A stretch of 64,000 bases of DNA from Candidatus Bathyarchaeota archaeon (GCA_963697165.1 CAVOMX010000024.1:64001-128000), one strand, 5' to 3'; shown: positions 35,688 to 47,844, counted from the first letter of the stretch. The notes: a model not told the origin generated them from the letters alone. Made by a program: numbers and translations.

Positions 35688-36581
35688 ATGAGTTATCGTG
35701 AGCTCTTTGTATCCCCGTCTCCCGTCTTCTCGGGAAGTCAACGAAGCTTTGAAGAGGCAAAATACGTAGTTTTAGGTGTCCCCTTTGACGTAACCAGTAC
35801 CTACCGTTCTGGGGCAAAGTTTGCGCCTCTAGCCATCAGAGACGCTTCCCAGAATGTTGAATGCTACAGTTTCAGAACTGGCGTGGACGTTGAGGAACTG
35901 AAAATCCATGATTTGGGAGACCTGCATGTTGCGGCGGATGTTGAGTTGACTTTGGGACGTTTAGCTTTGGTTGCGCAGGACCTTTTTGAAGCCGAGAAAG
36001 TTCCAGTGTTTATTGGTGGAGAGCACACAATTACTTTAGGTGTTATGAAGAGTCTCAAAGACGTTGCAGTGGTAAGTTTTGATGCTCATTTAGACCTGCG
36101 TGATGACTATCTTGGTCTTTCTGTGTCTCATACAACCTTTATGCGGAGAATCAAAGAAGATGTTAATCCTTCCAAGATTTTGGAGATTGGCACCCGCGCA
36201 GTATGCAGAGAAGAGCTTGATTACGCGAAAGAGGCTGGAATCGACTATCTGACTGCCCATCAGATACGAAAGGACGGGGTCAAAAAAACGGCTGAAAAAA
36301 TCAAGGAAGTCCTTGGTGGCTGCGAAAAAGTTTACGTTACAATTGACATGGATGTTCTGGATCCTGCTTTTGTGCCTGCAGTTCCGAACCCTGAACCTGA
36401 AGGATTGGATACCTCAACGCTTCTGGATCTTCTGGAGGCGGTGTGTGAGCGTCGGGTGGTTGGATTCGATGTGGTTGAGGTAGCGCCTCACTATGACCAA
36501 GGCGTAACTGCTACTCAGGCTACAAAAGTTATCTTTGAAGTGTCTAGGCTTCCTAGAAAGAGCACAAAAAAGCTAGTCTAA
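35688..36581 (+). CDS. speB: agmatinase
   Basis: GGEHTIT; DAHLDLRD; DMDVLDP; DVVEVAP. Confidence 0.93.
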   Translation: MSYRELFVSPSPVFSGSQRSFEEAKYVVLGVPFDVTSTYRSGAKFAPLAIRDASQNVECYSFRTGVDVEELKIHDLGDLHVAADVELTLGRLALVAQDLFEAEKVPVFIGGEHTITLGVMKSLKDVAVVSFDAHLDLRDDYLGLSVSHTTFMRRIKEDVNPSKILEIGTRAVCREELDYAKEAGIDYLTAHQIRKDGVKKTAEKIKEVLGGCEKVYVTIDMDVLDPAFVPAVPNPEPEGLDTSTLLDLLEAVCERRVVGFDVVEVAPHYDQGVTATQATKVIFEVSRLPRKSTKKLV

Positions 36582-36596
36582 GCTGTTATTTTTGCT

Positions 36597-37939
36597 TCAT
36601 ATGGTCTCTTTTTTTAGTTTTGCTACGAAGAAGCCGTTGCATTCATGAATGTGAGGATAGAGTCTCTGGCACTTGGTTAGTCCTCTGAGTCCCGGCAATC
36701 CGATTCTGGGCTTTGATTCTACCAGCTTGAATTCTGGGTGCAGTTTCAGAAAGTTTTCGATAACCATCTCGTTTTCCTCTAATGTTATGCTACATGTGGA
36801 GTAGACCAGAAAGCCGCCATCTTTCACGTATTCTGCGCACTGTTCTATCATCTCCTCCTGAATCTTCGACATGCCCAGCATCGACCGTTTGGTTAGTGCG
36901 CCACTTCGCGTCAGGTGTCTTGCCGAAGGTTCCTGTGCTTGTGCATGGCGGATCCAAAATCACCAAGTCCGCGGAAACATTCAATGGCAAGCAATTTCTT
37001 GCGTCAGCAATTATTGGCGAGACAATTTCTGTGCCCGTGCGTTCTGTTTCTCTTTTCCATACCTTGTATTCTTCGTTTTGAGTAGTCAACAGAAATTATT
37101 GTTCCTCTGTTTTCCATCAGCTGCGCCAAGTAGGTTGTTTTGGAGCCTGGGGCTGCGCATATGTCAAGTACTGTGGTTCCCTGCTTTGGGTCTGCGATTT
37201 CTGCTGCTAGGCAGCTGGCTTTGTCTTGTATGTAGAAGTGTCCTTGACTGAAGCTTTGTGTTCTTGTTAGTGGTTTGTTTGTTTCTATCAGCTTGTGTGT
37301 GTGTTTTAGTTGCGGAACCTTCTCCAGAATTATCTTCTCGTCTGTTATGTTTTTGAGTAAGGTTTCTGTTGGCGCTTTCAACGTGTTCAATCGCACGTAG
37401 ACTGGTGGGATATCTTCGGATTTTTCTAGGAATTTTAGGGCTTCTCCTCTTCCAAGAAGCCTGAAGCAGTATTTTACGAACCATGTGGGATGATATGTTT
37501 GGAGTCCAATCTTCTCTGTTTCTTCTAGACCTTTTAGGATATTTTCTGTGTTTATGCTCAGTATTTCGCCGAGAACCTCTTCGATGTCTTTGAGTTTCCA
37601 CCATCCCAGTATTGAGCGTCCCATTTGGGCTATTCTTGAGGCTTTCTCTAGGTTTCCGTCAGCCACTTTTGTTTCATAACAGTATAGTTGAAGGAAAACT
37701 TTTGGACCAAGTTTGAGGTCATTTAGTGACCGCGGCTCTAGAACCGAGTTTAGCAGAAAGTCGATATAATTCTTTTTTCTGAGTGTCTCGGATACTAGCC
37801 TGTGGGCTAATCCGATTGCTTTTGGGTCTTTAATTCTAAGCTGTTTTGCGGCTTTTGTTAAGGCTAAACGTTCACCTAGCCGTTTCAGTTCAATCCAGCT
37901 CAGTGTTTCGATGGCGAGAATCCAAGCGTCCCTTAACAT
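36597..37939 (-). CDS. RsmB/NOL1/NOP2 family RNA m5C methyltransferase (two frameshifts)
   Basis: IQDKAS; DICAAPGSKT; LDPPCTSTG; YSTCS..EENE. Confidence 0.92.
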
Positions 37940-38044
37940 TTCTGTTCGTATTATGAGTCTTTGCTGGGTGCCTATTAAAAGGCTTGATTATTGTTAAATA
38001 ACCGCACTCATTCCTTTGAATGTTGACTGTTCAAGTGTTGTGGT

Positions 38045-38338
38045 ATGGACATGAAGTTGCAAGAGACTGCTCAGGGCGTCGTTTTGGATGTACATGTTAA
38101 GCCCGGCTCGAAGGAGTTTCGGTTACAATTTGAAGAAGATGAGCTTGTGGTGCTTTGCCGTGAAGCTCCAGTGAAGGGCAAAGTCAACAAGGAATTGCTG
38201 AAACAGTTTTCGCGACTTTTTGGACGCAAAGTTGAGCTTGTTTCAGGGTCTACTTCAAGACAAAAGAGGTTTCTTATCAGCGACATCGAAGCAGAGGAAG
38301 TTAACCGAATCTTGGTTTCTGCCTTGGGCACTCGATAG
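38045..38338 (+). CDS. DUF167/UPF0235 family protein
   Basis: VHVKPGS; PVKGKVNKEL; SGSTSRQK. Confidence 0.9.
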   Translation: MDMKLQETAQGVVLDVHVKPGSKEFRLQFEEDELVVLCREAPVKGKVNKELLKQFSRLFGRKVELVSGSTSRQKRFLISDIEAEEVNRILVSALGTR

Positions 38339-38427
38339 TTTGATTTGAGGATGCTTTTTTAGTAATCTATTTAAAAGCTGAAATGGACGCTTCTTTTAAC
38401 GGTTTGATGCTCAGTGGAGCATGAACC

Positions 38428-39534
38428 ATGTTGCCATTTCAAGTGTCTCTTGGGGTGAAGAAGATAGTTAAGCCTAAACCGTCAGTTACCGTAGAGCTTT
38501 CAGACGAAGAATTGGAATACTATTCAAGGCAGATTGTATTGGCTGATTTGGGCTACAATGCCCAGCTGAAACTGAAAAATTCTAAGGCTTGCTTGCTGGG
38601 TGTTGGCGGTTTAGGTTCTCCGGCGGCGATGCAGCTGGCGGCTATGGGAGTTGGATATTTGCGTATTGTTGATCGTGATGTTGTGGAGTTGACTAATTTG
38701 CATCGTCAGCACCTCTATGGCCTTGATGATGTGGGATACCCAAAGGTTGAAGCTGCTGCCAAACGGTTACAGAACTTGAATCCTTACATCAATATAGAGC
38801 CTCTTCCGCTCTCAGTAAATCAGGCCAACGCAGAAGATATCGTTAAGGGCATGGATGTTGTGGTCGATGGTTTAGATAGCATGGCTGCCCGTTACGCAAT
38901 CAACAGAGCCTGCATCAAATTTGGTGTCCCCTACGTTTTTGGGGCTGCCATAGAAACCAATGGTAACTTGTCTACGATAGTTCCGGGAGAAACAGCGTGT
39001 CTCGAATGCTTCTATGGCAGTCTTGATGACAAAAAGTTGCCCAAATGCGGGGTGGTGGGAGTTCATCCATCTCTGGTGAATATAATAGCAAGCCTAGAAG
39101 TCAGCGAGGCAATCAGAATACTAACAGGAAAGCAGCCCCGCTTAGTCAACAAGCTTCTTCATTTTGACCTAGATGAACTAGAATTCAATGAGATCTGCCT
39201 CTCAAAGGTTGATTCCTGCCCCGTCTGTGGGGTAAACCCGTCAGGTTCTGCTATGCCGCTAAGGCATGAGTTGATGGAGGAAATCTGTGGACGAAAAGGA
39301 AAGAAGGTGTTTGTTATCGTTCCAGAAGAGAGCTTGGATGTTAATCTTGTATGCTTGAAGGGCTACTTGGCGAAGAAGGGGTTCAGCATCAAAGTTGAAG
39401 CCAAACTCGGACTGACATTTGTTCTCCGAGATGTTAAGGCAAGTGTTCTAAAAAGTGGAGTAGTTATTCTTGAAGGAATCAAAAAAAGAGATGAAGCACT
39501 CAAGCTTTTCGAGGAATTAACTGGTAACTGCTAG
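38428..39534 (+). CDS. ThiF/MoeB/UbaA E1-like adenylyltransferase
   Basis: YSRQI; GVGGLG; DRDVVELTNLHRQ; CLEC; CPVC. Confidence 0.92.
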   Translation: MLPFQVSLGVKKIVKPKPSVTVELSDEELEYYSRQIVLADLGYNAQLKLKNSKACLLGVGGLGSPAAMQLAAMGVGYLRIVDRDVVELTNLHRQHLYGLDDVGYPKVEAAAKRLQNLNPYINIEPLPLSVNQANAEDIVKGMDVVVDGLDSMAARYAINRACIKFGVPYVFGAAIETNGNLSTIVPGETACLECFYGSLDDKKLPKCGVVGVHPSLVNIIASLEVSEAIRILTGKQPRLVNKLLHFDLDELEFNEICLSKVDSCPVCGVNPSGSAMPLRHELMEEICGRKGKKVFVIVPEESLDVNLVCLKGYLAKKGFSIKVEAKLGLTFVLRDVKASVLKSGVVILEGIKKRDEALKLFEELTGNC

Positions 39535-40023
39535 TGCGAATTTCAGAAAAAGAAGCCATCATAATTGCAACAGATTACACAAAACGGCTTCATGGAAAGC
39601 CAAAAGTCACATAGTAAAAAATTTTGCGATACTATCTGAGCCTGTGACCGCAAGATTGTATCCCCCACAAGAAATCCTCTGGTGCTGATTCCTTACTGGT
39701 AGGTAACTCTTCAACTCGACCAAGTTTACTCCGAAAACGTTCACCTCATCGCCGTTGGACTATGGGTAGACACAGGAGAAGTCAGTGGTCATCAACTAAT
39801 AACCAAAGGATAACCATACACAGCTTGGCGGTGTCTTTGCGGAACTTGGGCAAACACTATCCTTTTAAATGCTGCATAAACATGCCCTGTTTTTTTGACC
39901 TGAAACATGTTTACTTCATGTTTACCCCCAAATATGCTCAAACTTTTAATGCAATAACTTTTAGGAGTATACTTTAATTTTTTAAACTAAATCGATATAT
40001 AACCTGTTGTCGGTGAGTATTGT

Positions 40024-42246
40024 ATGCCAAAGCGGCGACCAAAATCAGGTATTAAGGTTCTCAAGGCTGCATCCTCTTCCCTGCGCATGCAACTGCTGAT
40101 CACCCTAGTCGATAAGGGACCACAATCCTACACCGACCTAATGAAGGTCCTGAAACTCAACCCAAGCAGAGACGCAGGAAGATTCGCTTACCACCTGAAA
40201 TATCTACTAAACGCAGACCTCATAGAACCCGACGTCGACAACAAAGAATACAGACTCACTGAACTCGGAAAAACCATGATCAGCTTCACAGAAGACATCC
40301 AAGAACAGTTCTTCCAAAGAAAAAAGATTCTCGTAAGAACCTCCCGTCTAGCAATGGAAGAATTCGACAGAAACAAGATTGTCGAAGCCCTAGTAAAAGA
40401 GGCAAACGTTCCCGTCTTTCAAGCCCAAAAAATCGCCCGAGAAACCGAAAAGCGTCTCCTAGAATTCAAAACAAAATACCTGACCGCACCCCTAATACGA
40501 GAAATGGTCAACGCAATTCTCGTAGAAAAGGGACTAGAAGAATACCGCCACAAACTCACACGGCTGGGACTCCCAGTTTTTGACGTTAACCAGCTTATAG
40601 AATCAACTGGAACCACGCATCAGGGCGTGGAGGCAATTCACAAGGCGGCTGCCGACGCCGTCATGGAAGAGTACACTCTTCTTAATGTTCTGCCACGGGA
40701 TGTTGCTGACGCGCATCTATCTGGCGGTCTACACCTCGAGAACCTTGGAACTTGGGTTCTGAAGCCCGACCAGTTCATGCATGACCTGCGTTTTTTCCTT
40801 AAACATGGACTGAGTCGCGGAGGAATGAACCTCCAGGAGCCCTCCTATCTTCCGCCAAAAAGCCTTGAAGCCGCGCTGCTCACCGCTTCTAACGTATTAA
40901 AAACCGCTGCTACAGAAACCTCTGGAGAGCAGACCCTTGACTTCTTCAACATCTTCTTAGCCCCATACACTCAGGGTAATTCAGAGGAGCGAATCAGAGA
41001 AGGGTTACGCCTCTTCATATCTAACCTGAACCAATCCGTATCCAACGGAAGCTCTGTGGGCGCCTCCTTAGGCATAGAATTTGTTGTCCCAAACTTTTTG
41101 AAAAAGAAAGAAGCAATCGGACCTGAAGGAAAACCTGCCGGCTGCTACGGAGACTATGTAGAAGAAAGCCGCCGCCTCGCTTCCCTCCTACTCGAAGTGA
41201 CGCTTCAGGATGATGCGCACAAACCCGTTCTCAATCCACGTCTAGTAATAAAGATACGGCCCGAGGTCCTAAAAGACCCTGAATGCGCTTCTCTTCTTTT
41301 TGAGACACACAAACTTGCTGAAAACGGTCTTCCATATTTTGCTAACCTCTGCCCCCCTGAACAGACAAGCGCATCTTACACTTCAACAGGCTTCAGGCTA
41401 GCAGCTGACTGGAGAGAAGACTGGGAACTAGACACCATGCAGACAGGAAGCGTAGACAGCGTGATAATAAACCTGCCCAGAGTCATGTATGAAGCAGGAG
41501 GCAAAGAAAACAGCTTCTTCCACCTCCTATATGATCAGCTGGAACTGGCTTTACAGGCTCTGGAAATAAAATACCGCACAATCAAACTACGAGAAAAAGA
41601 ACATATGCTGCCCTTCCTGATGCAGAAAACCGACGGCGACCAATACTTCAGAATCGAAAACACTGTCCGCCTCGTCAGCTTTGTTGGCTTGAACGAAACC
41701 ATCCAAGCTTTCTTTGACAAACCCCTAAAACAGGAGGGAGAGACCCTTGATTTCGCCAAAAAAATAGTATCCTATCTCTCCAGCGACATCGAGAAGTACT
41801 CAAAGAAGCCTGAGACCCGCGCGTCTTTGGCTATGGTGCCCGCCGCTGACGCTGCAAAACGGTTGGCGGAACTTGATGCAGAAAAGTATGGGTGGGCAAA
41901 GGTTCGTGCCCAAGGCACACGCGAGAAGCCCTTCTATACTGACTTGGTTGCTTTGCCTTTAGGCGTTGACATTTCTTGGAAGGAGCGGCTAAGAATTGAG
42001 GAGCGGTTTCACCGTTTGACTCCAGGAGGTCACATGGCAGTTATACCTCTTGCTGATGAGCCGCAAGAGCCTGATGACCTCCTATCCGTTACCAGAGAGG
42101 TTGCCGGAAACTACGGGGTTGGCTTCTATGTTTTCAATCGGAACCTTGCCTACTGTGCTAGTTGTCAGCATGTTTTTTATGGTAAACTGGAGCGATGCCC
42201 CTCGTGTGGTTCCGTTAATTTGCTTCAGTCTTTTAGTCGAATATGA
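40024..42246 (+). CDS. wHTH + ATP-cone + catalytically dead class III RNR (NrdD-like) fusion; putative nucleotide-sensing regulator
   Basis: aa 1-90 wHTH (LRMQLL..SYTDLMK..FAYHLKYL..YRLTELG); ATP cone VRTSR..EEFDRNKI; NrdD motifs ADAHLSG, INLPR, GLNE and a Zn ribbon; no catalytic Cys or Gly loop. Confidence 0.85.
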   Translation: MPKRRPKSGIKVLKAASSSLRMQLLITLVDKGPQSYTDLMKVLKLNPSRDAGRFAYHLKYLLNADLIEPDVDNKEYRLTELGKTMISFTEDIQEQFFQRKKILVRTSRLAMEEFDRNKIVEALVKEANVPVFQAQKIARETEKRLLEFKTKYLTAPLIREMVNAILVEKGLEEYRHKLTRLGLPVFDVNQLIESTGTTHQGVEAIHKAAADAVMEEYTLLNVLPRDVADAHLSGGLHLENLGTWVLKPDQFMHDLRFFLKHGLSRGGMNLQEPSYLPPKSLEAALLTASNVLKTAATETSGEQTLDFFNIFLAPYTQGNSEERIREGLRLFISNLNQSVSNGSSVGASLGIEFVVPNFLKKKEAIGPEGKPAGCYGDYVEESRRLASLLLEVTLQDDAHKPVLNPRLVIKIRPEVLKDPECASLLFETHKLAENGLPYFANLCPPEQTSASYTSTGFRLAADWREDWELDTMQTGSVDSVIINLPRVMYEAGGKENSFFHLLYDQLELALQALEIKYRTIKLREKEHMLPFLMQKTDGDQYFRIENTVRLVSFVGLNETIQAFFDKPLKQEGETLDFAKKIVSYLSSDIEKYSKKPETRASLAMVPAADAAKRLAELDAEKYGWAKVRAQGTREKPFYTDLVALPLGVDISWKERLRIEERFHRLTPGGHMAVIPLADEPQEPDDLLSVTREVAGNYGVGFYVFNRNLAYCASCQHVFYGKLERCPSCGSVNLLQSFSRI

Positions 42247-42510
42247 TCAAAACGGCGTCTTTCCCTTCCTTTTTTGCTTTTGGTCTTTGTATGGTGTAGC
42301 TGTTTTGGCTGTTTAACCCCTATATATAATGGAAAACACATCTTGGTCAATACGGCTTCCCTATTTCATATTCCAATTTAGGCTAGACGGATGTCTATTT
42401 GTTAATTTGACGGGACGCTTATACAGAATTTTATACCATTAGGACTAAAAAATTAAATATAGCATAATGCACTAAATGCTTTTATCTCGCAAGTAAAAGA
42501 GGTATTTTTC

Positions 42511-42816
42511 ATGAGCTTTTCAAAAGATTTCGGCAGCTCTCCTGAGCATCTACATGCCAACGGCTTAGTGGTTTACACAACCAGCGGATGCACTCGATGT
42601 GATATGCTGAAAAAATGGTTAAAGAACAAAGACGCAGATTTTGAAGAAAAAAATCTGGAAGACTCCGAAGTAATGACAGATCTAGTGATGAGAAACTTTG
42701 TTGTGATGTCGGCTCCAGCAATAGAAATTGATGGAATAGTTTACACGGATAACCAGATATTCGAAAGCAACGGCTTAATCAAACCAAACTTGTCAAAAAT
42801 ATTCGAGGTCATGTAA
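42511..42816 (+). CDS. nrdH: NrdH/glutaredoxin-like redoxin
   Basis: VYTTSGCTRC (CxxC); VMSAPAIEIDG cis-Pro motif; abuts nrdD. Confidence 0.85.
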   Translation: MSFSKDFGSSPEHLHANGLVVYTTSGCTRCDMLKKWLKNKDADFEEKNLEDSEVMTDLVMRNFVVMSAPAIEIDGIVYTDNQIFESNGLIKPNLSKIFEVM

Positions 42817-45012
42817 ATGACCGAGATAATTCAAAAGATTCGACCAATGGTTAGGGGAACCGACGGCTTCATTATCCCTTGGAACCGAAACCAAATCGTG
42901 GAGCAGCTCCTGACAGAAACAAAATTGGCTGAAGAATTCTATGAAACAAGAGCCATAAACAGGCAAGAGGCTGAAGAAATAGCTTTTGAGGTGGAAACGA
43001 AAGTTTTTGATTTGAACCTCAAGTTCATCAGTGGACCCCTTATACGGGAACTGGTAAACAATGTTCTGTTATCCAAGTCTGCACAGAAGCCCGAGTTTGC
43101 GCTTTACAGAAACATTTTGACTCGAGTAGGTGCGCCCGTCTATGACGCATACCTGATGGATGTGGGACAGGGCTTCAAGGCAAAAGAAAACGCAAATCTT
43201 CAACCTAACCCAGAAACCGCTCACAAGAGAAAAGCAGACTGGGTTTCAGGAGAAGAATACCTGCTGCTGATGCCTCCCAAAATTGCTGACGCACACCTGT
43301 CAGGCGACCTCCACATCCACGACCTAGAATATTTCGGAACCCGACCCTTCTGCCAAGACTGGGACCTCCGATACTTCTTCTATTACGGGTTGATGCCTGA
43401 CGGACTCGGCACCAGAACAAGCATTGCTGGTCCAGCCAAACATCCAGAAGTTGCAATTCTGCACACCGCCAAGATACTAGCTTCTGCACAGACAAACTTT
43501 TCTGGCGGCGAAGGCTTCTACAACTTCCTAATTTTCCTTGCCCCATACTTTAGAGGCTTGACTTACGAGCGAGTCAGGCAGCTTATGCAAATGATGTTCT
43601 TTGAGTACACTCAGGCTTACGTGGCTAGGGGCGGTCAGCTGGTCTTCAGTAACATTCAGGTGCAGCCGGGAGTTCCTGACCTCTGGAAAAATGTTCCTAT
43701 TGTAATGAATGGACGTGTTGGACCAGACGTTTACGGAAACTACGAGGATGAAGTCCGCCTCATGTTCCGTGCCCTTTATGATGTGGCTGGCAAAGGCGAC
43801 GCCTGGGGAAAGCCCTTCAACTTTCCGAAGCTCGAGAACTCTTTGAGTCCCGAGTTTTTCAAGCCCGAATACGATGATGTGTGGCTTGACGTTCACAATG
43901 TTGTAGCCAAGTTTGGGCTTCCCTACTTTGATAACTTGATGCCCGCTTACAGGGGCTACGGCAAAGGAGTTTCATGTTACCAGTGCTGTGCCTACTGTTT
44001 TGTTGAAACTCCTGAAGACAGCCCAGACTTCTACGATAAGCTCAATTTCAATGGCGGAAAGCACTTTACGATGGGAAGCTGGCAGGTTACCAGCATGAAT
44101 CTTCCAAGACTTGCTTACAAAGCCAACGGAAACGATGAGATGCTCTTTGAGGAGAGTCGCAGGCTGATGGATTCTGCTCTTGACGTGTTCAAAGCCAAGA
44201 AGAAGTGGATGAATCTTGCCTTGAAGCACGACAGGATACCTTTCGCCACCCAGAGACCTTTGGATCCACGAACTAGAGAGAAGGGAACTCAGGCTGTAGA
44301 CTTTGATGCATTAACCTTTACGATTGGTCTTGTGGGCGGAAACGAGATGGCTCAGTATCACACGGGCTATCAGCTGCACGAAAATCAGGAATCAGTCAAG
44401 ATTCTTATCAAACTGATTCTGGAGATGCAGAAATACAAGAAGGTTCTGGAGGAGAAGAGCGGCTACAAGATTGCCTTAGCGCGGACTCCTGCTGAGTCTA
44501 CCGCTCAGAGGTTCGCTATAGCTGACCTGCTCACGGACGGTTATCGGAAACATGCGGAGAAGATGATTAAGGGAAATGTGAATCAAGCCAAGGTTCTGCT
44601 TGCTGACCGAAAGAAGGATGTTCCAATATACTACAGTAATGGAACACACGTTGATGTAGGCGCTAAATTGGGGCTGTTTGACCGTATGAACATCGAGCAG
44701 AAGTTCTTCCCACTCTTGAACGGCGGAAACATGCTACATATTTGGTTGGGAGATGCCAATCCGGACCCTGAAGCCCTATACAAACTGACCAAAAAAATCA
44801 CCACACAAAGCAACATCGGCTACTTCGCTTACACCAAGGATTTGACCGTCTGCAGTAACTGCGGAAAAGTCACTTCGCCAATGCGGGAACAGTGCCCCCA
44901 CTGCAATTCCAACGATGTAGAATGGTGGTCAAGAGTAACAGGATATTATCAGGCAGTTAGCGGATGGAACAAGGGCAAAAAACAGGAACTGATGAACCGT
45001 TACAGAATCTGA
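42817..45012 (+). CDS. nrdD: anaerobic (class III) ribonucleoside-triphosphate reductase
   Basis: ATP cone; HIHDLEYFGTRPFC; YQCCAY; TPAEST; YYSNGTH; CSNC/CPHC; SRVTGYY glycyl loop; WNKGKKQE. Confidence 0.97.
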   Translation: MTEIIQKIRPMVRGTDGFIIPWNRNQIVEQLLTETKLAEEFYETRAINRQEAEEIAFEVETKVFDLNLKFISGPLIRELVNNVLLSKSAQKPEFALYRNILTRVGAPVYDAYLMDVGQGFKAKENANLQPNPETAHKRKADWVSGEEYLLLMPPKIADAHLSGDLHIHDLEYFGTRPFCQDWDLRYFFYYGLMPDGLGTRTSIAGPAKHPEVAILHTAKILASAQTNFSGGEGFYNFLIFLAPYFRGLTYERVRQLMQMMFFEYTQAYVARGGQLVFSNIQVQPGVPDLWKNVPIVMNGRVGPDVYGNYEDEVRLMFRALYDVAGKGDAWGKPFNFPKLENSLSPEFFKPEYDDVWLDVHNVVAKFGLPYFDNLMPAYRGYGKGVSCYQCCAYCFVETPEDSPDFYDKLNFNGGKHFTMGSWQVTSMNLPRLAYKANGNDEMLFEESRRLMDSALDVFKAKKKWMNLALKHDRIPFATQRPLDPRTREKGTQAVDFDALTFTIGLVGGNEMAQYHTGYQLHENQESVKILIKLILEMQKYKKVLEEKSGYKIALARTPAESTAQRFAIADLLTDGYRKHAEKMIKGNVNQAKVLLADRKKDVPIYYSNGTHVDVGAKLGLFDRMNIEQKFFPLLNGGNMLHIWLGDANPDPEALYKLTKKITTQSNIGYFAYTKDLTVCSNCGKVTSPMREQCPHCNSNDVEWWSRVTGYYQAVSGWNKGKKQELMNRYRI

Positions 45013-45163
45013 ATGCAGAAAATCTTAGTAAACGTAACGTGGCAGCAGTAAACTCGCCAGAAATTTCTTTTTCAACTCTTGTATCAGTAAGTTTAAAATA
45101 GTGGCTAAATAAATTACTGCCAAGTAATTCTCTTAATCCTGCGTGGAGTGTCAAAATAGAAAA

Positions 45164-46232
45164 ATGGCAAAGGCCAGAAGTAACGGAACCTGTAAGAATA
45201 TATCCCCTTTGTTGTCGGATTTGCGACCAAACGACTGGAGTGACAATCGTGAACGCCAACTTAAACTAAAACGTCAGTCTTGGCAGGTTATGGTTGGTAA
45301 CACAATATTTCTTGAAGCAAGAAACTTGGCTCCTATTCTGGGATGTGAACGTGTTTATCTGAAGTTTGAGGGCAGCAATCCTACTGGAACCCAGAAAGAC
45401 CGCATCGCTATGGTACTTGCTGATCAGGCGGTTACTTCAGGACTAGAAGGGATTACCTCCGCAACCTGTGGTAACTTTGGTGTAGCAATCGCCTACGCTG
45501 CGCGGCATTATGATTTGGCTGCCAATATCTATATTCCCAAAAAATATGATGTGCCAAAGGATCGGCTGAAACGTATGGAAAATTTTGGGGCAAAGGTGCA
45601 TTTTGTTGATGGTTACTATGAGGATGCAGTGGCTTACTCTTCTCAGCAGGCAATAGAATGTAACTGGTTTGATGCCAATCCTGGAGTAAACGAGGTTCCG
45701 GAATTGTCTTTAGCTGCATATGGAGAAATTTCGTTTGAGATTTATCGCGATTTGAGGCGGGTTCCAAACTATATTTTCTGTCCTGTTGGAAACGGCACAT
45801 CTACTTGCGGGCATCTATGCGGGATTCAAAAAATTATACTTATCGGGTAAGACTATGACTGTTCCGAAGATGGTGGCTACCAGTACACGGCGAGGCAACC
45901 CTGTCATAAAGTCATTCAAAGCAAATAAGCGAACAATATTTGATCTAAAACCTGAGGAAATCAAAGAGAGCAAAATCAATGAGCCTCTAACCAACTGGCA
46001 TGCATTCGATGGACAACTTGCCCTAGATGCAATTTATGAATCTGGAGGCTTCGCAGAATACGCTTCAGACACAAAAATGATGGAGTTCTCAAAGCTGGTT
46101 CGCTCAGAAGAAGGACTAAGTGTTCTACCCGCAGCCGCTAGTACCCTTGCTGTTATGCAAACTCTCGGCAGAGAGGGTTTCATTGTTAAAGGAACATTCG
46201 TGGCTATCCTGACTGGCAGAGACTTTGACTAA
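45164..46232 (+). CDS. threonine synthase-like fold-type II PLP enzyme (frameshift near 45800)
   Basis: KFEGSNPTGTQKDR; ATCGNFG; CPVGNGT; EEGL. Confidence 0.85.
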
Positions 46233-46259
46233 GATCTGCCCAAATAGTCCAAAATGGAA

Positions 46260-46847
46260 CTACAGCACAAGTTTCATGATGACGTCTCCTTTTTCAGAAA
46301 TGGAGACTGTCTCAAATCCATGTTTTGCGTAGAACTGCTGTAGAAGAATTCCTTTCTCGTCCATTAATTCGGTGTCCAAAACTATTGCCTGAAACTGTTT
46401 TGTTTTTGCCCAGCGAATCATAAACTCGATAACAATGTTTCCGATGCCTTCGCCTCTGCGTTTGACAGCGAAAGTGTCAAAATAGTATGATTTTGAATGT
46501 TCTTCTTGAATCGAGTAGCCAAGAAGAAGAATTTGGGGCTCACCATCCACTATGATAAACCAGAAAATCAGGTCCGGATTCTCAAGTATCTTCGTTAACT
46601 CTTCAAAGGAGTACTGTAGCTCCCGTCTGAAGCCTGTCTCCTCAATGCTGTGAAACCATGAGAAGTAATGTTTGTTCCATTCTGTTGGAAAAACTATTTC
46701 TAGTTCTCCCTCATACCTGTTGGCTAGCTCGTCTAGAAGCTGCCGCCAAAGTGGATTATCTTTTTCTGGTTGGAGTATCGATTTTGTTTTATTCACAGCT
46801 TTCTTTTCTCTCCCAAAGGCTGCTCGTTGACTACCTAACTTTGGCAC
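46260..46847 (-). CDS. GNAT family N-acetyltransferase
   Basis: FAVKRRGEGIG acetyl-CoA motif; QFYAKHGF. Confidence 0.85.
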   Translation of the reverse strand: MPKLGSQRAAFGREKKAVNKTKSILQPEKDNPLWRQLLDELANRYEGELEIVFPTEWNKHYFSWFHSIEETGFRRELQYSFEELTKILENPDLIFWFIIVDGEPQILLLGYSIQEEHSKSYYFDTFAVKRRGEGIGNIVIEFMIRWAKTKQFQAIVLDTELMDEKGILLQQFYAKHGFETVSISEKGDVIMKLVL

Positions 46848-46849
46848 TT

Positions 46850-47844
46850 CTATAGTTTTAGACCATAGCGGCTACATGCAGATTCGAGAAGTCTGCGGAT
46901 AAGCTCATCGTAGCTGTAGCCAGATTTCATTGCCATGTACGGATAGAATGACAGATCGTTTTCGTCTAGTATCGAAGTCCATTCCGGGTAGAGGATTGAT
47001 TTCTAAGAAAAACAGTTTCCCTGCACTGTTCATACGAAAGTCGATTCTCGCAAAATCTTTAACATCCAATGCATACCAGATATCACGTGAAAGCTGCTCA
47101 AGCGTGTTCTTCAGTTTTTCTGGAATTTGTGCGGGACAAATGTAGTGGTCCAGCGAGTCTAGAACCGTTTTGGCTCGTTGCCCAAATACGCCACCTACTT
47201 CAGGGAACTTGGAGAAATCGATTTCCAGAATAGCAAGAACCTCTGGCACTTCGCCTGCTCGTCCTAGTAATCCGGTGCTGAATTCTCTACCCTCAATAAA
47301 CTGTTCAATGAGGATCGGCTGCTGATACTCTCTAGCATCTGTTTTAGTCTTGTGTGCAGTTGTGTTTTGTCGTGTACCAAGTTTTCTTCTGTGATTCCGA
47401 TCGAGGAGCCTTCTTCGTTGGGCTTTAGGATATATGGGAAGCCTTCAGTGATTTTCTTTGCTTCTTGAAGGTTTTTGCATACGTAAAATTTTGGTGTAAA
47501 TATGTCTGTGATAAAGGAGAGCCTTTTTTGTCCATGCTTTGTTTAGGCAAATCGCGGTAGTCAGCACGTTAGCGCCAACATATGGTATTTCAAGCATTTC
47601 AAGTATTGCTGGCACATGCGATTCACGGCTATCTCCTTTTAGACCCTTCTGCTCTGTTAAAGACAAGGTCTGGTTTTGCTGCTTTGATGTTTTCAGCAAA
47701 GTTTTCGTCAGCTTCAACAAAGACGTACTCATGTCCAGTGGCTACGATGCCATGTTTTATGAGTTCAATAGTGTGAGGAGGATCGTACTCGACCTCAAAT
47801 TCGGTTTCTGCGTGGCGAGTATTCAAAACTAGTGCTATCCGCAT
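46850..47844 (-). CDS. D-Ala-D-Ala-ligase-like ATP-grasp enzyme (several frameshifts)
   Basis: PDLVFNRAEG; ESHVPAILEMLEIPYVG; CLNKAWTK; KPNEEGSSIGI; ARIDFR; LEINPLPG. Confidence 0.88.

Follow-up and report, generated by a model that had tools for sequence, protein, structure and literature searches.

The 64,000-nucleotide stretch CAVOMX010000024.1:64001-128000 from a Candidatus Bathyarchaeota archaeon (GCA_963697165.1), referred to here as the window, carries a gene for a 740 amino acid (aa) protein in which an N-terminal winged helix-turn-helix (wHTH) domain of the ArsR/SmtB type is joined to an ATP-cone, to a barrel of the type found in NrdD, the class III anaerobic ribonucleotide reductase (RNR), and to a Zn ribbon. 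The barrel has lost its catalytic residues. The gene, called here wHTH-NrdD, lies upstream of a gene for a NrdH-like redoxin and of an intact nrdD. With moderate confidence we read the protein as a non-catalytic descendant of NrdD that works as a one-component transcription regulator, responding to nucleotides and acting on nucleotide-supply genes. In the window's genome it would control its own promoter together with the nrdH-nrdD operon that immediately follows the gene.

Loss of catalytic residues and the domains retained

Residues 95-740 of the protein align with residues 3-707 of the neighbouring NrdD at 28% identity (BLASTP, E 2e-73), and the Pfam NRDD model matches residues 201-740 with an E value of 1.9e-82. 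On the NrdD equivalog model TIGR02487 of NCBIfam the protein scores 310.3 bits, which is under the cut-off of 326.35, whereas the neighbouring NrdD scores 524.5 bits. In the alignment of the first barrel strand (GDLHIHDLEYFGTRPFC vs GGLHLENLGTWVLKPDQ) KPDQ takes the place of RPFC, and the cysteine is gone from the dead copy. The finger loop, YQCCAY in the active enzyme, reads YTSTGF and offers no cysteine for a thiyl radical. At the C-terminus the active SRVTGYY is reduced to SRI followed by the stop codon, the glycyl-radical loop (RVxGY) being gone, and all three forward frames of 42200-42510 are free of TGY and of GY. The HxHD motif for the substrate triphosphate is HIHD in the active enzyme and HLEN in the 740 aa protein, the stretch with the NxN flap is deleted, and TPAE has become VPAA. 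The protein contains cysteines at 374, 421 and 443 and the four of the Zn ribbon (711, 714, 725 and 728), and the catalytic positions hold none. The roles of HxHD, which binds the substrate triphosphate, and of the flap, the two cysteines and the glycine in NrdD follow the accessible part of PMC11226230.

The neighbouring NrdD has its motifs in place, namely HIHD at 166, Cys179, the CC pair at 390/391, RVTGYY at 706 and the Zn ribbon. A CC finger loop of this kind is typical of redoxin-dependent, not formate-dependent, NrdDs. Compared with the class III NrdDs of solved structure (T4, T. maritima, P. copri and S. thermophilus), the 740 aa protein has the same fold, ATP-cone and Zn ribbon, and keeps the cone-to-barrel linker motif YRxxLTRxGxPV as well as NLPR. 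It differs from them in lacking the strand and finger-loop cysteines, the glycyl-radical loop, HxHD, the NxN flap and TPAE, in scoring under the curated equivalog cut-off, and in having relatives which occur without NrdG.

A concern raised with the original prediction was that the fusion might be unique to this assembly. It is not. In a sample of 401 genomes across the window's phylum, a match spanning the wHTH (start within the first 16 query residues) is present in at least 114, and some NrdD-like match in 278. The 120 clusters listed by a word-indexed search have 74-100% identity to the 740 aa protein and are nearly all full length; their source labels are "anaerobic ribonucleoside-triphosphate reductase" or hypothetical proteins of Bathyarchaeota. 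An exhaustive search of representatives clustered at 50% identity gave 2415 matches at E up to 0.001. By their source names family members belong to Bathyarchaeia, Candidatus Culexarchaeum, Nitrososphaerales/Nitrososphaerota and Thermoprotei, and the Candidatus Culexarchaeum relative is named "ArsR family transcriptional regulator".

The family alignment comprises 123 of the best 150 representatives, 27 proteins longer than 900 aa, probably intein-bearing, having been excluded. The wHTH is present in 73 of the 123. Among these, HxHD is found in none (0/73), the strand cysteine in none of the 72 which cover its column, and the radical motif in none of the 61 which cover the C-terminus. A stray cysteine lies within two columns of the finger-loop position in 8 of 70, at no fixed place. 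Of the 50 representatives without the wHTH, 13 carry the radical motif.

A separate group of NrdD-like proteins carries a tandem pair of ATP-cones and lacks the wHTH (P0178, P0184, P0195, P0201, P0211, P0215, P0218, P0221, P0223, P0228, P0235 and P0240). The radical motif is present in none of its members, and the finger-loop cysteine and the Zn ribbon are each missing in most. This group may be another non-catalytic RNR derivative.

The full-length AlphaFold2 (AF2) model of the protein has a predicted local distance difference test score (pLDDT) of 89 and a predicted template modelling score (pTM) of 0.80. Its best Foldseek matches are all solved NrdDs (9d3x, 8p2s, 4coi and 1h79, with E values of 1e-27 to 1e-21), which are also found by sequence with the family profile. 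The model of residues 1-105 (pLDDT 90) has the ArsR/SmtB topology a1-a2-a3-aR-b1-b2-a5, with helices at 9-16, 19-31, 36-42 and 47-63, wing strands at 67-70 and 75-78 and a long helix at 80-103. The best Foldseek matches of this N-terminal model are CadC 1u2w (template modelling score, TM, 0.67; root-mean-square deviation 1.7), ArsR 6j05, HlyU, HxlR, YodB and MarR-type proteins, all of them DNA-binding wHTH regulators, with TM values of 0.6-0.7 and E values of 2e-3 to 1e-2. Because confidence in the linker between wHTH and cone is low (about 58), the position of the wHTH relative to the rest of the protein is not predicted. The homodimer prediction for two copies of residues 1-500 scored 0.37 against a mark of 0.42 and speaks neither for nor against dimerisation.

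By sequence, the wHTH of the window's protein scores 25.4 bits on Pfam DUF7347, a winged-helix family of archaea, just under the cut-off of 27.6, and all 13 wHTH relatives scanned are over it (27.9-45.8 bits). The ArsR-type models HTH_5 and HTH_20 also match wHTH relatives, HTH_5 with 23.5-29.8 bits (cut-off 22) in 4 of the 13. The 740 aa protein itself reaches 16.4 bits on HTH_metalloreg (cut-off 55) and has no match to HTH_5, and a phmmer search of residues 1-100 against the PDB sequences gave no match at E up to 10. With the ArsR/SmtB regulators CadC, ArsR, HlyU and BigR the protein shares the predicted topology and a recognition helix with the H-L-K-x-L signature. It differs from them in the weak sequence match of its wHTH and in its putative sensing part, which would be a 640-residue RNR remnant and not a metal or thiol site.

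The ratio of non-synonymous to synonymous substitutions (dN/dS) was estimated from 15 close orthologue pairs of genes. It is 0.068 for wHTH-NrdD, with 80 pairs giving a usable dS, against 0.053 for the active nrdD. Within wHTH-NrdD the wHTH has a value of 0.036, the ATP-cone one of 0.028 and the barrel one of 0.088. All values are rough because dS, at about 1.5, is near saturation. In a family alignment of 59 sequences a conservation of at least 90% is reached by 25 of the 78 cone columns, by 12 of the 81 wHTH columns and by 16 of the 499 barrel columns; in the barrel the nearly invariant residues are N483, P485, R486, G555, E558, R613, D618, G668 and G669. The wHTH and the cone combine the lowest dN/dS with the most conserved columns, and selection is thus concentrated on the two domains that a sensor-regulator needs.

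One could suspect a decaying pseudogene or an annotation artefact, as the open reading frame (ORF) terminates at the very point at which the glycyl-radical loop would be expected to start, and its product scores under the NrdD equivalog cut-off. This is refuted by the intact frame of 740 aa, by dN/dS over the 80 pairs, by full-length relatives in at least 114 genomes and by the confident AF2 model, and we practically dismiss it. The original prediction had described an intact ORF with wHTH, ATP cone, NrdD-like barrel and Zn ribbon, the loss of both cysteines and of the glycyl-radical tail with no TGY in any frame past the stop, and selection on a non-catalytic role. ORFs, domains and motif losses are as it described them, the N-terminal domain folds in the model as an ArsR/SmtB module, and purifying selection goes together with losses which are family-wide.

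Gene neighbourhood and co-occurrence

In 23 of 27 close loci nrdH-nrdD lies directly downstream of wHTH-NrdD, the other four having less than 550 nt of downstream DNA. A further 49 loci, which do not form a random sample, were composed of the 29 best matches of the 401-genome search, with 1.5-kb flanks, and of 20 loci hand-picked from long contigs of diverse families. Among these 49, nrdD is directly downstream on the same strand in 10 (in one of them, L045, only by a match of 30% identity) and a class II RNR directly downstream in 3. In 19 loci a convergent pyrB lies no more than 155 nt away, with pyrI usually on its far side; the gene adjoins pyrI and a pyrH-like kinase in 2 loci, and a dCTP deaminase gene (dcd) is directly downstream in 1. 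Altogether a nucleotide-supply gene is the immediate neighbour in 35 of the 49 loci, and the RNR partner is of either class. The linkage to nrd genes that had been predicted originally holds in the close loci, but the association proved wider than nrdHD and takes in class II RNR, pyrB/pyrI, pyrH and dcd.

The order wHTH-NrdD, convergent pyrB and pyrI diverging from pyrB is kept across several families of the phylum (loci L046-L088); it involves no co-transcription.

The window's genome, which is 81% complete, contains only two NRDD genes, both at this locus, together with a class II RNR and an NrdG encoded on another contig (C20:42735, 207.7 bits). No NrdR (TIGR00244) was found in what is assembled of this genome, and the wHTH-NrdD gene does not match that model either. 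Five other genomes of the same class, 96-100% complete, were chosen for having a single NrdD-like match. In all five the sole NRDD match over the cut-off is the wHTH-NrdD protein and a class II RNR is present; NrdG over the cut-off is found in none of them (best 80 bits vs 131). That these genomes keep wHTH-NrdD without NrdD or NrdG is strong evidence against both a compulsory partnership with NrdD and hidden radical chemistry.

This bears on an alternative already named in the original prediction, according to which the protein is a regulatory subunit forming heteromers with active NrdD. Such a subunit would suit the adjoining nrdD in the window's family and the NrdD fold common to both proteins, dimer-interface helices included. 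It is disfavoured by the five near-complete genomes, in three of which a class II RNR follows the gene, and by the many genomes in which dead and active genes are on separate contigs, and it leaves the conserved wHTH unexplained. We consider it highly improbable.

NrdR itself (TIGR00244 over the cut-off, 149-163 bits) occurs in 24 of the 401 genomes, all belonging to one family (f2) of the window's order. RNR-linked loci come from NrdR-bearing genomes in 0 of 13 cases, and in the NrdR-bearing family wHTH-NrdD is beside pyrB, not RNR, in 11 of the 11 loci examined, both counts coming from few lineages and not being independent. From these 11 loci, from the convergent pyrB found over several families, and from the two loci with pyrI and pyrH, one could conclude that the protein is a general pyrimidine or nucleotide regulator with pyrB/pyrI as its ancestral targets, control of RNR being secondary, lineage-specific or absent. 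The convergent pyrB is, however, not co-transcribed with the gene, and inspection by eye showed no motif that the wHTH-NrdD promoter shares with the pyrB/pyrI intergenic regions. Moreover, the window's family has the gene directly before nrdH-nrdD in 23 of its 27 close loci, and another family has it before a class II RNR in 3 of 3. On balance a primary role in pyrimidine control is, in our judgement, unlikely.

The locus and its promoters

Features of the wHTH-NrdD locus, with positions counted from the first letter of the window
Feature	Position	Strand	Basis
Near-invariant 15-mer TAATTTTTTAAACTA, ending 34 nt before the wHTH-NrdD ATG	39975..39989	+	kept in 23/24 aligned orthologous upstream regions
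wHTH-NrdD gene (740 aa; wHTH, ATP-cone, dead NrdD barrel, Zn ribbon)	40024..42246	+	ORF, Pfam, NCBIfam, AF2/Foldseek
ArsR/SmtB-type wHTH, residues 10-90, then long helix to about residue 100	40051..40293	+	Pfam DUF7347, AF2, Foldseek
ATP-cone, residues 101-178; most conserved part of the family	40324..40557	+	Pfam ATP-cone
NrdD-type 10-stranded barrel without HxHD, strand Cys, finger-loop Cys and TPAE	40624..42123	+	alignments, Foldseek
Zn ribbon CxxC...CxxC; ORF stop directly after SRI, at the site of the NrdD glycyl-radical loop	42136..42228	+	sequence, alignment
Conserved intergenic block CCCCTATATATAATGGAAAACACATCTTG	42317..42345	+	kept in most of 21 aligned intergenic regions, truncated in 5
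TTATACAGAATTTTATAC, with TTATAC twice, 12 bp apart; best-conserved block before nrdH, candidate operator	42419..42436	+	TATACA in 21/21 aligned regions
CTAAAAAATTAAAT, putative BRE/TATA of nrdH, containing the 12-mer TAAAAAATTAAA	42445..42458	+	aligned intergenic regions
Glutaredoxin/NrdH-like redoxin gene (101 aa, CTRC)	42511..42816	+	Pfam Glutaredoxin, E 2.4e-08
Intact class III RNR gene nrdD (731 aa)	42817..45012	+	TIGR02487, motifs

The 15-mer TAATTTTTTAAACTA upstream of wHTH-NrdD is either the core promoter, that is the B recognition element and TATA box (BRE/TATA), or a candidate operator. It lies in the last 50 nt or so, the only part conserved among relatives, of an unusually long spacer of 489 nt (39535-40023) which separates the gene from a ThiF/E1-like gene. 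Further afield, 4 of 5 genomes, representing 4 families and protein identities down to 38%, carry the 12-mer TAATTTTTTAAA 30-50 nt ahead of the orthologue; its genome-wide counts equal those of the reversed-pattern control. Before nrdH, the TTATACAGAATTTTATAC block occurs only once in the 1.99-Mb genome, and forms related to it are present before nrdH in L044 and L045 and before nrdD in L048. The 12-mer TAAAAAATTAAA, with 3 copies in the genome, is common to both promoters in opposite orientation. In three other lineages nrdH, nrdD or class II RNR genes have related TATACA/TACA...TTTT elements in front of them.

The heptamer GTTTAAA is enriched in the wHTH-NrdD promoters (21 of 40, against 17 of 254 neighbour promoters, by k-mer enrichment), the related genomes not being independent; it may be a TATA variant and was not used as operator evidence. 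An RNA element in front of nrdH was considered and rejected, as that region has no Rfam match at E up to 1 and a fold z-score of +1.05.

Metatranscriptome contigs from four studies cover parts of wHTH-NrdD and nrdD, several of them at 99-100% identity. Two of the RNA contigs, from two studies, have their first nucleotide at 40019 and 40021 and no loose end, a weak hint of a transcript start near the ATG. No RNA contig covers 39500-39873 or 42305-42491, which proves nothing.

The NrdH-like protein matches the NCBIfam models GlrX_NrdH and YruB under their cut-offs. Its ORF runs up to 42816 and is joined without a gap by nrdD from 42817 on (window 42813-42819), which suggests translational coupling. 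Downstream of nrdD, a gene for a pyridoxal-phosphate enzyme (Pfam PALP) is divided into two overlapping ORFs, 45143-45850 and 45786-46232 (window 45143-46232), which match PALP positions 5-178 and 167-295; the split is a frameshift or sequencing error. A tRNA scan of 36000-47000 found none. A tRNA-like sequence is located just upstream of wHTH-NrdD in one family of the order (loci L046, L055, L058, L064, L088, L034 and L036), where it was seen as enriched k-mers such as GCCTAGACC and CCGACAGCC.

Proposed mechanism and significance

For the regulator that we favour, the dead barrel would dimerise and serve as a scaffold pairing two ArsR-type wHTH domains. Binding of ATP or dATP to the ATP-cone, and possibly to the old specificity site too, would change the geometry or the oligomeric state of the dimer, whereupon the paired wHTH domains would bind to, or come off, A/T-rich sites located in the BRE/TATA region, or immediately before it, of wHTH-NrdD itself and of nrdH-nrdD. 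The effect could be either repression or activation. The scheme is drawn by analogy with NrdD dimers, in which the ATP-cones lie together near the dimer axis and rearrange with ATP or dATP (accessible part of PMC11226230), and with NrdR, in which oligomer changes driven by ATP or dATP decide DNA binding (accessible part of PMC9110341).

NrdR, the bacterial RNR repressor of about 150 aa with an N-terminal Zn ribbon and an ATP-cone, is a close point of comparison. As in NrdR, an ATP-cone is joined to a DNA-binding module, there is linkage to more than one class of RNR gene, and the proposed ATP/dATP logic is alike. The 740 aa protein differs in having an ArsR-type wHTH instead of the N-terminal Zn ribbon, in its lack of a match to TIGR00244 and in being five times larger, as it carries the whole dead NrdD barrel. 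Furthermore, no paired palindromes resembling NrdR boxes were identified, and wHTH-NrdD co-occurs with a true NrdR in 23 genomes.

A number of observations weigh against the proposed regulator. DNA binding and nucleotide binding by the protein are predictions. The match to the Pfam ATP-cone model is marginal (27.8 bits, cut-off 25.8), and a Val stands where the KR pair normally has its Lys. No statistically supported shared operator emerged from the comparisons of 12-mers, palindromes and intergenic regions. TAATTTTTTAAACTA is possibly no more than the BRE/TATA of wHTH-NrdD. As a regulon motif the 12-mer TAAAAAATTAAA was rejected, since its counts equal those of the reversed control in 5 other genomes and its remaining copies fall within genes or next to unrelated ones (RIO kinase, S10, ABC transporter, MgtE and SSB-like/Alba); it is retained solely as an element conserved in the wHTH-NrdD promoter. 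The palindrome GTATAAAATTTTATAC from the nrdH and nrdD promoters was likewise rejected: when up to 3 mismatches are allowed it has 18 genome matches, whereas 40 controls with shuffled half-sites have 31 on average. In the pyrB/pyrI intergenic regions of 11 loci, inspected by eye, no common motif was seen and none shared with the wHTH-NrdD promoters. The metatranscriptome libraries may contain DNA carry-over.

The neighbourhood data contribute to the same side. Fourteen of the 49 loci have no nucleotide-metabolism neighbour, 8 of these having only 1.5-kb flanks, and several families have the dead gene and the active one on separate contigs. The anti-correlation with NrdR which had been predicted at the outset fails in one family, where 23 of the 24 NrdR-bearing genomes also hold a full-length wHTH-NrdD relative; wHTH-NrdD is therefore not simply a replacement of NrdR. 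The conserved loss of cysteine and glycine, also anticipated there, stood for the catalytic cysteines and the radical motif, which are gone family-wide, but not for the glycine: a C-terminal tail aligning with the glycyl-radical domain is kept in 47 of the 73 wHTH representatives, and 12 of the 47 have Gly at the radical column. In the window's own subclade the tail is wholly lost.

The glycine kept in these 12 relatives, taken with the purifying selection on the barrel itself, means that the barrel may do more than serve as a scaffold. Another reading is that the protein binds nucleotides while tethered to DNA and has a role which is non-transcriptional or a remnant of enzyme activity, such as buffering or sensing of deoxyribonucleoside triphosphates (dNTPs) at the chromosome or a new non-radical chemistry in the former active site, the wHTH serving only for localisation or autoregulation. 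A barrel of 500 residues which is intact, under purifying selection and has a few nearly invariant positions would fit such a role, as would the fact that no operator could be established. On the other hand, all known substrate-binding motifs of NrdD (HxHD, NxN flap and TPAE) are degraded, the barrel is the least conserved domain, and true NrdDs conserve most of the residues retained in it as well, in keeping with a structural role. We hold the tethered role to be distinctly unlikely.

A bolder form of the regulatory reading is possible, though we regard it as doubtful. In it the whole allosteric apparatus of NrdD, that is the activity site in the cone and the specificity site at the dimer interface, would be reused as the sensor of a transcription factor that reads the ATP/dATP ratio and the dNTP balance and sets the RNRs of either class together with pyrimidine synthesis (pyrBI, pyrH and dcd). 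The protein would then stand as master regulator over the supply of DNA precursors in Thermoproteota, a group in which NrdR is rare (for archaea, accessible part of PMC9110341). It would also be the first transcription factor built on a glycyl-radical-enzyme fold.

That inactivated enzymes may serve as sensors of DNA-binding proteins, ligand binding being kept and catalysis lost, is a known principle, and the inactive large RNR subunits of herpesviruses are an example of RNR scaffolds surviving without catalysis. With the transcription factors derived from inactivated enzymes the wHTH-NrdD protein shares an enzyme fold, the loss of catalysis and the coupling to a DNA-binding domain. We know of no case in which an RNR or any glycyl-radical-enzyme fold is the sensor domain of a DNA-binding protein. 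No paper on the architecture of wHTH, ATP-cone and NrdD was found by full-text searching (supplements excluded), and the accessible parts of the RNR phylogeny papers 10.1101/2022.04.23.489257 and PMC4390871 make no mention of an inactive or HTH-fused NrdD. The use of such a fold as the sensor of a DNA-binding protein thus appears to be new.

As many members of the family are labelled "anaerobic ribonucleoside-triphosphate reductase", metabolic reconstructions are mis-scored; genomes named Nitrososphaerales have by label an apparent class III RNR and are actually without one. The transcriptional control of ribonucleotide reductases in archaea is, to our knowledge, largely unknown, and the wHTH-NrdD family, present in at least 114 of 401 genomes of one phylum, is a concrete candidate for it. 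If the reading that we favour is true, the protein would be a striking pseudoenzyme, in which a radical enzyme of 640 residues is kept only as a nucleotide sensor and dimer scaffold.

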